From the NCBI RefSeq assembly GCF_003334405.1, contig NZ_QOWM01000034.1: a DNA stretch of 3,454 nt. One strand, 5' to 3'. Shown here piece by piece: positions 2,428 to 2,643 of this stretch (position 1 is the first letter of the stretch; the number at the start of each line of letters is the position of its first letter). Origin of the DNA: Escherichia coli. GTDB lineage: Bacteria > Pseudomonadota > Gammaproteobacteria > Enterobacterales > Enterobacteriaceae. A model generated the notes under the pieces. The model searched no databases. It was not told the origin of the DNA and saw only the letters and a program-made list of their open reading frames with translations. A program made the position numbers and the translations under genes.

Positions 2428-2643
2428 ATGAAACAATGCATCTTTGATTTAGGCATCATGAACTATGATGCCGTCATTACATGGACTGTACCAGTTGTAT
2501 TTTTCTTTTTAGTGTTACTGGCTGGTATAGCATTTAATATTGGCAGGAAAAGTAATCTGATTGTTTTTGCCCTGGCAATGTTGCTCCCAGTAACAACGGT
2601 TTTCATTTTTATGTTACTTGGCGGCAAGATCTATATATGCTGA
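2428..2643 (+). CDS. Hypothetical small membrane protein (71 aa, two predicted transmembrane helices)
   Basis: ORF track. SD GGAGGAG with a 9-nt spacer. Starts 24 nt after the ParG-like stop, so probably co-transcribed. Hydrophobic segments VPVVFFFLVLLAGIAF and LIVFALAMLLPVTTVFIFMLL. Confidence 0.55.
   Translation: MKQCIFDLGIMNYDAVITWTVPVVFFFLVLLAGIAFNIGRKSNLIVFALAMLLPVTTVFIFMLLGGKIYIC

Follow-up and report, generated by a model that had tools for sequence, protein, structure and literature searches.

The 3,454-nt stretch of Escherichia coli DNA analysed here (contig NZ_QOWM01000034.1 of assembly GCF_003334405.1; in the following, the window) is a piece of the maintenance region of an IncX4-type conjugative plasmid. 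Its megablast matches in PLSDB were IncX4 plasmids of approximately 30-34 kb from E. coli, Salmonella and Klebsiella, with identities of 95-99%; the annotated genes flanking the window are topB-hha-hns on the upstream side and DUF2726-bis-pir on the downstream side. The subject of the analysis is a short open reading frame (ORF), ORF71 (2428-2643, + strand), which is predicted to encode an inner-membrane protein of 71 amino acids (aa) with two transmembrane (TM) helices and which follows the two partition genes of the plasmid. ORF71 is a real, selectively maintained gene, and it is an optional passenger of the partition cassette, not a part of the partition machinery.

ORF71 and its surroundings in the window

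The partition genes lie on the same strand as ORF71. parA (1412-2059) encodes a small Walker-type (type Ib-like) partition ATPase of 215 aa, assigned through the NCBIfam model NF041546 (ParA_partition) with an E-value of 3.8e-32, under that model's curated cut-off. The partner gene, parG (2134-2403, with the stop codon TAA at 2401-2403), encodes a ParG-like protein of 89 aa, a putative ribbon-helix-helix (RHH) centromere-binding protein and repressor; the RHH assignment is weak (RHH_1, PF01402, E-value 0.0037), and the protein showed an identity of 38% to the ParA-adjacent 94-aa protein of IncX5-like plasmids. Iterons of the TGTGACATACA type with a phasing of 25 bp flank parA on both sides (1243-1415 and 2056-2113), which suggests two operator or centromere sites per cassette. 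The upstream block overlaps promoter-like sites 5' of parA; the promoter scan placed these sites within the iterons of region 1268-1422 on the + strand (1268-1297, 1306-1334 and 1393-1422; repeat families D1-D3), and this region, which is the sole + strand promoter region predicted 5' of ORF71, is presumed to be an autoregulated par promoter/operator or a centromere-like region. The second TGTGACATACA iteron pair, between parA and parG, is located on the + strand at 2065-2101 (D1-D3 and I6). An analogous block of CAACATAAAT repeats was observed between ORF71 and parG in the IncX5-like relatives (positions 6216-6305 of L013; comparison loci from other plasmids are designated by L numbers throughout). 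The names given to plasmid ParA proteins by RefSeq and its Prokaryotic Genome Annotation Pipeline, 'division plane positioning ATPase MipZ' (L001-L003, L005, L018 and L020) and, in pEC4115, 'peptidyl-arginine deiminase', are misleading for plasmid partition genes.

ORF71 starts with ATG at 2428, ends with TGA at 2641-2643 and is separated from the partner gene by 24 nt. Its Shine-Dalgarno (SD) sequence, GGAGGAG (2412-2418, + strand), was identified by anti-SD pairing and flank alignment and lies 9-10 nt before the start codon, with a predicted pairing energy of -9.5 kcal/mol, the strongest value among the scored genes of the window (parA -7.7, parG -4.6, orf117 -9.4 and dqlB -5.9 kcal/mol). 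The initial annotation, made from the sequence alone, had reported a 71-aa ORF at this distance behind the partner gene with a good SD, and both the coordinates and the pairing energy agree with it. Among ten homologous ORF71 DNA copies from different plasmids (65-97% protein identity), the pairwise ratio of nonsynonymous to synonymous substitution rates (dN/dS) was 0.05-0.31 and the variable columns at codon positions 1, 2 and 3 numbered 20, 17 and 50, respectively; dS inside the gene reached approximately 1.5, i.e. synonymous sites vary freely. At least 80% of the frame was covered in 212 of 216 tblastn matches in PLSDB (98% intact). The low dN/dS, the dominance of third-position variation and the full-length state of nearly all copies establish ORF71 as a real gene under selective maintenance, and the view of it as a genuine two-helix membrane peptide gene is supported. 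Its composition is foreign, with a GC content of 36.6%, compared with 31.9% for orf117 and 45.8% for parA.

The protein (MKQCIFDLGIMNYDAVITWTVPVVFFFLVLLAGIAFNIGRKSNLIVFALAMLLPVTTVFIFMLLGGKIYIC) has a grand average of hydropathicity of 1.50, and the Kyte-Doolittle 15-residue maxima are 2.85 (residues 21-35) and 2.51 (residues 44-58). An AlphaFold2 model contained helices at residues 15-37 and 44-63, in agreement with the two strongly hydrophobic helices noted earlier, with a mean predicted local distance difference test (pLDDT) value of only 66. The alignment of full-length members contains no gap, and each of them, down to two distant ones with identities of 41% and 28%, has a length of exactly 71 aa. 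The invariant residues are M1, C4, Y13, G33, A50, G65, K67 and the C-terminal C71, and the window protein fits the resulting pattern (M-x-x-C, Y13, G33, A50, G65-x-K67 and C71, together with two TM helices). Further conserved positions within the helices are P22, N37, P54 and G65-G66-K67; the C-terminus reads GGKIYIC. The N-terminal tail is acidic in most members (E2, D7), and the sole Arg-Lys pair is found in the loop between the helices (GRKSN). Because of this pair, the positive-inside rule predicts a cytoplasmic loop and two short periplasmic tails, that is, an N-out/C-out topology, and the invariant cysteines C4 and C71 would therefore lie on the periplasmic, oxidising side, where a disulfide could close the hairpin or link protomers. 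A mercury-transport-like (MerF/MerE) or metal-binding role for the cysteines was considered and discarded; a mer or metal context is absent, and the cysteines are single, not vicinal. Regarding the fold, the best Foldseek matches in the PDB were hairpins resembling subunit c (TM-score up to 0.58), which at E-values of 6-10 are insignificant and, given a model pLDDT of 66, carry no meaning.

The promoter scan yielded no promoter-like site on the + strand between 1422 and 3174, the terminator scan yielded no terminator-like site between parA and ORF71, and the first strong + strand terminator downstream of parA is located at 3214-3235. Together these predictions make a single parA-parG-ORF71-(remnant)-orf117 transcript from the iteron region the simplest reading. 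The co-transcription with the partition genes that had been supposed for ORF71 is thus the most economical interpretation of the scans, and it stands as a prediction. At the end of the gene lies a hairpin (2640-2666, + strand) with an 8-bp stem (2640-2647 paired with 2659-2666), a loop of 11 nt and ATTCTTTCTC behind it. Its predicted stability does not exceed that of shuffled sequence (z = 0.28), and the terminator scan did not call it, in line with its earlier description as weak; at most it is a leaky terminator. The identical hairpin was found 3' of ORF71 only in L002 and L006, there with a better U-tract; in L004 and L008 part of the 3' flank is conserved with a different predicted fold, and in L001 and L005 the flank is unrelated and the hairpin absent. 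With its occurrence beyond the window confined to L002 and L006, the hairpin was rejected as a conserved terminator or recombination site.

Downstream of the hairpin, a 39-codon ORF with a GTG start (2677-2796) is the remnant of a gene for an 83-aa protein that has two TM segments and a charged C-terminal tail, an architecture resembling that of holins. The remnant proper (2683-2796, + strand) corresponds to residues 47-83 of that protein (tblastn, 92% identity), and its nucleotides match the 3' end of the 83-aa gene at 3849-3954 of L005 (blastn, 98% identity). Intact copies of the 83-aa gene were found in 173 PLSDB plasmids, with the gene directly upstream of ORF71 in nearly all records that list both; in most IncX4 copies the two are neighbours. 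The presence of a remnant identifies the window as a rearranged version that has kept ORF71 and lost the intact 83-aa gene; L002 represents the converse, with an intact 83-aa gene and a frameshifted ORF71. ORF71 occurs without the 83-aa gene in L001, L006, L007, L009, L010, L013 and L019. An obligatory two-gene module was consequently rejected, since at least seven other contexts have ORF71 by itself and the window copy of its neighbour is a remnant; the two genes are frequent neighbours, not an obligatory pair. The next gene, orf117 (2856-3209, + strand, 117 aa), is AT-rich (32% GC) and has a strong SD and an N-terminal signal or anchor sequence. Searches of Pfam, NCBIfam, PHROGs and PADLOC gave no match for it. 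The gene is present in plasmids of the window type (L029, L030 and L032) and is replaced by a different 140-aa membrane protein in L002; orf117 is a second passenger in the same slot. The strong terminator at 3214-3235 is predicted to be an intrinsic one acting in both directions and likely also ends the transcript of the convergent DUF2726 gene, the 3' end of which follows it.

Upstream of the partition genes, the window carries a complete DinQ-like type I toxin-antitoxin module, comprising an antisense RNA of the AgrB family (294-381, - strand; Rfam RF02891, score 62 bits, gathering threshold 40) and the toxin gene dqlB (656-751, + strand; NF041473, 72 bits). The sequence GACTCTCAATATCCAAC is present twice, near 366 and near 563, which would suit an antisense-target arrangement of this module. 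Directly 3' of dqlB, a small, very hydrophobic ORF of 59-72 aa with two predicted TM segments (782/821-1000, + strand) corresponds to the RefSeq hypothetical protein WP_001694198, for which the start at 821 is used elsewhere; it had no match in NCBIfam, PHROGs or PADLOC.

Distribution, optional presence and recurrent contexts

ORF71 belongs to an uncharacterised family named 'integral membrane protein' in RefSeq (WP_000806548, WP_000399460 and relatives). RefSeq already annotates the gene, as a hypothetical protein; the names in source records are 'hypothetical protein', 'integral membrane protein' or 'putative inner membrane protein'. The exact protein of the window was found in 329 blocks of a large protein collection (P0057), on contigs of approximately 30 kb with the gene order parA-parG-ORF71-orf117-DUF2726. 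In PLSDB the family occurs on 216 plasmids, mostly conjugative, from Escherichia, Klebsiella, Salmonella, Enterobacter, Citrobacter, Shigella, Atlantibacter and Morganella. Among 5,426 complete E. coli genomes, 216 (approximately 4%) carry ORF71, and 229 of its 230 places are plasmid-borne; a chromosomal origin was discarded, as just one place of the 230 is chromosomal.

An exhaustive profile search with a hidden Markov model against 1.84 billion representative proteins returned 12 matches, all of them the same family or fragments of it, with three full-length clusters. No match to ORF71 was found in Pfam (searched with the single sequence and with 12 family members), in NCBIfam (in which the type I toxin models match dqlB but not ORF71), in the PDB by sequence profile, or, at a significant level, in PHROGs; tblastn against 50,697 phage records gave no homologue. 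The best PADLOC match, PDLC00721, had an E-value of 0.19 and gave no defence assignment. The sole Rfam match of the whole window was the AgrB-like RNA, with none in or next to ORF71; the nearest was a sub-threshold, chance-level match downstream at 2729-2765. Full-text literature searches with six RefSeq accessions of family members found no mention, and the gene is not mentioned in the literature on IncX4 backbones, plasmid small proteins and leading regions that the searches turned up. Judged by sequence, the family cannot be tied to known proteins.

The parA-parG cassette of the window (1412-2403) was found at an identity of at least 95% in 320 PLSDB plasmids. A query across the junction from parG to ORF71 was covered in 13 PLSDB plasmids, 12 of which were identical while one had the 83-aa gene interposed. 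Approximately 96% of the plasmids with the same cassette, successful IncX4 lineages among them, accordingly lack the junction. The slot between parG and DUF2726 is AT-richer than the par genes and holds other genes elsewhere: a DUF2806 gene in L003 and most close megablast relatives, and the 83-aa gene, a frameshifted ORF71 and a 140-aa gene in L002. With the junction in 12 plasmids, the cassette in 320 and alternative genes in the slot, ORF71 is accessory. The initial annotation had named absence from partition cassettes that are identical in other respects as evidence against its interpretation, and this absence was observed; ORF71 does not belong to the partition system. Of the options listed at the outset, the hitch-hiking gene fits best.

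When the loci that do carry ORF71 were compared, partition genes recurred upstream of it in several unrelated forms. In the window and in L001, type 1 parA-parG is followed by ORF71 after 24 nt. L006 has a type 2 parA (37% identical), a 70-aa membrane ORF and parG2 before ORF71, and in L005, pCROD2 (L011) and L002 the order is parG, 83-aa gene, ORF71. The IncX5-like KPC plasmids (L013-L018) have ORF71 inside the par operon, 11 nt after parA and followed by iterons and the gene of the 94-aa ParG-like protein. A Salmonella plasmid (L019) shows a SprT-like gene, ParA, a 77-aa partner, ORF71 after 34 nt and a partial second partner copy, and the IncF-type plasmids of Enterobacter (L010) and Atlantibacter (L009) have ParA, a partner, a 63-aa membrane ORF and Phd/RelE before ORF71, with apparently just a relE remnant kept in L009. 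In the IncF leading regions (L004 and pCoo, L008), ORF71 lies between hok/sok and traM, directly behind residues 1-50 of a type-2 parG. Only the pEC4115-type plasmids (L007 and L020), in which ORF71 follows a SprT-like gene after 35 nt, and L012, a short metagenomic contig, had no ParA directly upstream among the contexts examined. Genes neighbouring ORF71 on other plasmids (SprT-like, ssb, DUF1380 and hok/sok) are leading or establishment genes.

An alignment of the flanks of eleven copies showed that conservation starts approximately 16 nt before the ATG, i.e. with the SD and spacer, and extends to the stop codon or, in some copies, approximately 45 nt past it; no conserved promoter, 5' untranslated region (UTR) or antisense element travels with the gene. 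Of 14 contexts, 13 have an SD-like element at a distance of 7-11 nt from the ATG (the exception, L013, has 3 nt), and the gap to the upstream gene on the same strand was 9-62 nt in 12 of the 14, the exceptions being L004/L008 (15 nt from the truncated parG) and L009 (345 nt). The five ParA cassettes linked to ORF71 are only 23-38% identical to one another, and the ORF71 copies in four cassette types share 65-86% identity; the fifth, IncX5-like copy is at 28-35%. Either ORF71 moved between cassettes or cassettes were swapped in front of it, and on these identities it did not simply co-diverge with one par system. Recurrence across such deeply divergent ParA cassettes argues that the attachment to par operons is not a one-off accident, and the half parG gene kept in front of the IncF leading-region copies indicates their derivation from a par-linked copy. 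The recurrent capture by unrelated par operons, the strict 71-aa two-cysteine architecture and the cassette-like minimal unit appear to be undescribed so far.

Several rearrangements were observed at these loci. In L004 (3852-4001) and L008 (3837-3985), ORF71 is joined to the 5' half of a type-2 parG upstream of it, and a fusion ORF of 86 aa (P0014), with its start within the parG remnant, is annotated in some assemblies. In L019 (3668-3790), a partial second copy of the 77-aa partner (residues 26-77, 52% identity) overlaps the 3' end of ORF71, which looks as if ORF71 had been inserted between two partner copies or the cassettes had recombined. Small membrane ORFs, mutually unrelated, were seen in the par operons as well, namely the 70-aa ORF between parA and parG2 of L006 (3305-3517), the 63-aa ORF after the ParA partner of L010 (2905-3096) and a 160-aa multi-TM ORF after parG of L013 (6615-7097); genes of this kind may be typical of these par loci in general.

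The recurrent linkage invites the explanation that ORF71 is a genuine accessory factor of small ParA systems, either as a membrane partner of ParA or of the ParG-centromere complex, or as a link to the conjugative apparatus comparable to VirC1/VirC2. VirC1, a ParA-like protein, couples the T-DNA relaxosome to the conjugative apparatus together with the RHH protein VirC2, and the window ParA does show a weak similarity to VirC1 (E-value 3.3e-4). The attachment to five ParA cassettes of 23-38% identity, the position of the IncX5-like ORF71 between parA and parG, 11 nt after parA, the half parG gene retained by the IncF copies, and the unrelated small membrane ORFs in related par operons (70 aa in L006, 63 aa in L010) are further points in its favour. 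The junction, however, is missing from approximately 96% of the plasmids with the same cassette, whereas a component of the system would be expected wherever the cassette is found. ORF71 is also far more conserved (65-86% across four cassette types) than the partners (19-30%) and the ParA proteins (23-38%), the reverse of the pattern expected of co-evolving partners, and it occurs directly after SprT-like genes with no ParA upstream. No type Ib system is known to need a membrane subunit. This explanation is considered quite improbable. A direct role in partition is about as unlikely and is kept alive by the recurrent linkage; the same low probability is given to a wider version, in which ORF71 would represent a new class of accessory membrane proteins with a functional tie to the small ParA/RHH cassettes of conjugative plasmids. 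It would act either as an establishment factor, produced in a burst while the par promoter of a newly entered plasmid is still free of repression, or as a tether that connects the plasmid positioned by ParA with a type IV secretion system (T4SS) or the envelope, in the manner of VirC1/VirC2, and its capture would be adaptive.

Weighing the possible functions

As a small, very hydrophobic protein in surroundings rich in addiction modules (the dqlB/AgrB-like RNA in the window, hok/sok in L004 and Phd/RelE upstream in L010), ORF71 could be a small membrane toxin serving post-segregational killing or abortive infection and checked by an RNA, by the 83-aa protein or by ParG repression. Its frequent pairing with the 83-aa two-TM protein with the charged tail, the one frameshifted ORF71 copy and the truncation of the 83-aa gene in the window would fit such a system. 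Type I toxins usually have fewer than 60 aa and a single TM segment; ORF71 has 71 aa and two helices, with a strong SD in a housekeeping operon. No conserved untranslated flank could hold an antisense RNA or its promoter, the dS of approximately 1.5 within the gene speaks against an overlapping conserved RNA, and no Rfam match lies inside it. ORF71 also occurs without the 83-aa gene in most distinct contexts, and 212 of 216 copies are intact. On account of the two helices and the length, the lack of a conserved antitoxin candidate, the free synonymous variation, the strong SD and the 98% of intact copies, a toxin role is very improbable, and the second small toxin offered as an option by the initial annotation is not favoured.

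A different kind of target is assumed if ORF71 modulates an inner-membrane protein of the host or plasmid (a transporter, sensor kinase, protease or T4SS component) in the manner of AcrZ or MgrB and thereby lowers the cost of the plasmid. Modulation of other membrane proteins is reportedly the way in which small membrane proteins of bacteria act most often. The conserved helix residues (P22, N37, P54 and G65-G66-K67) and the fixed length would suit a specific helix-packing interface, and the narrow host range (Enterobacteriaceae) fits a specific host target; on the other side, the gene neighbourhood indicates no candidate target or partner, and ORF71 is optional even among close relatives. Modulation of a host membrane protein is the second choice after a protective role, and taken by itself it is unlikely.

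The reading preferred here is that ORF71 is a passenger gene expressed by read-through of the par operon from its autoregulated promoter, with a product that forms an N-out/C-out hairpin and has a protective or exclusion-type role at the membrane. The unit comprises hardly more than the SD and the 71-codon frame, has no conserved promoter region and would ride on the iteron-controlled par message ending at 3214-3235. The product would be a helical hairpin in the inner membrane with periplasmic tails and a cytoplasmic Arg-Lys loop. Autoregulation of the ParG/ParR type should result in low, copy-proportional expression at steady state and in transiently high expression in a repressor-free cell. 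Placement at the tails of par operons, by SprT-like genes and in IncF leading regions would accordingly give low, copy-number-linked steady-state expression, with a burst when the plasmid arrives in a new cell and the par repressor has yet to build up. In that phase ORF71 may shield the inner membrane of the new host from a membrane-targeting bacteriocin or from an incoming phage or foreign DNA. A protective role is favoured because early expression is to be expected both from the par promoter and from the leading and establishment genes in the neighbourhood; the enrichment and orientation bias of leading-region genes and their early expression in recipients have been described (PMC11541004). 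As a whole, the proposal is regarded as the best available and as tentative, with somewhat less than an even chance of being correct. Its most specific part, a function in bacteriocin immunity or in the exclusion of phages or foreign DNA, which is suggested by analogy, is held with low confidence, as a possibility between unlikely and tentative.

Several observations weigh against this proposal. The protective role is drawn from an analogy with other small plasmid or phage membrane proteins, and no bacteriocin, phage-related or known defence gene is located beside ORF71, the PADLOC, Pfam, NCBIfam and PHROGs searches being empty. The par linkage could be structural, with whole par cassettes exchanged ahead of a resident gene. 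Read-through transcription is a prediction; the hairpin at 2640-2666 might end part of the message after ORF71, and a second promoter could lie at the iterons that separate parA and parG. Finally, the frameshifted copy in L002 (a possible assembly error) and the shortened variants in some assemblies imply that loss of ORF71 is tolerated.

IncX4 plasmids and their small conjugative relatives are major carriers of resistance genes, mcr-1 and blaKPC among them, and the cargo slot adjoining the partition genes of these plasmids has been unstudied so far. Purifying selection, the occurrence in approximately 4% of the complete E. coli genomes and the location on plasmids (229 of 230 places) make it likely that ORF71 confers an advantage on plasmid or host, for which immunity, exclusion and a lower carriage cost are candidates. 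The contexts further suggest that autoregulated par promoters may be favoured landing pads for genes that profit from low, copy-coupled expression with a burst on entry. If the recurrent capture by unrelated par operons is functional, it would be adaptive rather than accidental, and if ORF71 acts on ParA or on establishment, a membrane component would be added to a system for which ATPase, DNA-binding adaptor and centromere have been regarded as sufficient.

Comparison with known systems

With regard to fold only, ORF71 resembles subunit c of F- and V-type ATPases, a helical hairpin of approximately 70-80 aa with a short polar cytoplasmic loop, and its predicted topology is similar to that of subunit c; unlike subunit c, it has no essential carboxylate in TM helix 2, no sequence similarity and no ATPase context. 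Holins of class II and pinholins combine two TM segments with a highly charged cytoplasmic C-terminal tail and are encoded beside an endolysin in phage lysis cassettes. In ORF71 the charged tail is absent and belongs to the 83-aa protein instead, and there was neither a phage homologue nor a lysin gene in the contexts examined. The type I toxins Hok, DinQ/DqlB and TisB are likewise small, hydrophobic and plasmid-borne, and the window does contain a real DqlB/AgrB-like module. ORF71, in contrast, exceeds their usual length of fewer than 60 aa, has two helices in place of one, and is conserved over approximately 16 nt upstream plus the ORF itself, with no conserved 5' UTR or antisense RNA; its strong SD stands in a housekeeping plasmid operon.

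An entry-exclusion-like peptide had been among the options named for ORF71. Conjugative entry-exclusion proteins of the TrbK/Eex kind are encoded in the operon for mating-pair formation, are specific to one T4SS type and are often lipoproteins with a lipobox. ORF71 is located in the par region, far from T4SS genes, and copies of approximately 75% identity are found on plasmids with either of two mating-pair formation types (MPF_T and MPF_F), which argues against an exclusion specific to one T4SS type. A lipobox is absent from the protein, which has no signal peptide ahead of Cys4. Location, breadth of T4SS types and the missing lipobox therefore argue against an entry-exclusion peptide in this sense. 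Similar in architecture are the superinfection-exclusion proteins of phages, such as T4 Imm. T4 Imm is a small two-TM protein that blocks DNA entry, and like it ORF71 would be a small inner-membrane protein of a mobile element with early expression expected; the difference is that ORF71 had no homologue in the 50,697 phage records and no significant PHROG match.

The immunity proteins of class II microcins and pore-forming colicins (e.g., colicin V and microcin H47) share with ORF71 the small size, the TM helices and the location on enterobacterial plasmids. Such proteins have approximately 50-100 aa and one to three TM segments, and 'orphan' immunity genes are known. ORF71 differs from them in showing no sequence relationship (no Pfam or NCBIfam match, and only its own family in the profile search of 1.84 billion proteins) and in having no adjacent bacteriocin or export genes; microcin B17-like genes do occur near the L013 copy, but two resolvase genes separate them from it, and their immunity mechanism is a different one.

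In behaviour, ORF71 resembles the promoterless, moron-like passenger cargo of plasmid and phage hotspots. Like such cargo, it is a minimal conserved unit of SD and ORF, inserted at the tail of a resident operon and in the same orientation; its AT content is higher than that of the backbone, near-identical backbones may lack it, and elsewhere its slot holds alternative cargo. Classical phage morons bring their own promoter and terminator, whereas ORF71 apparently has no promoter and a weak terminator at best. What further sets ORF71 apart from moron-like cargo is its unusual preference for one kind of operon, parA-parG.

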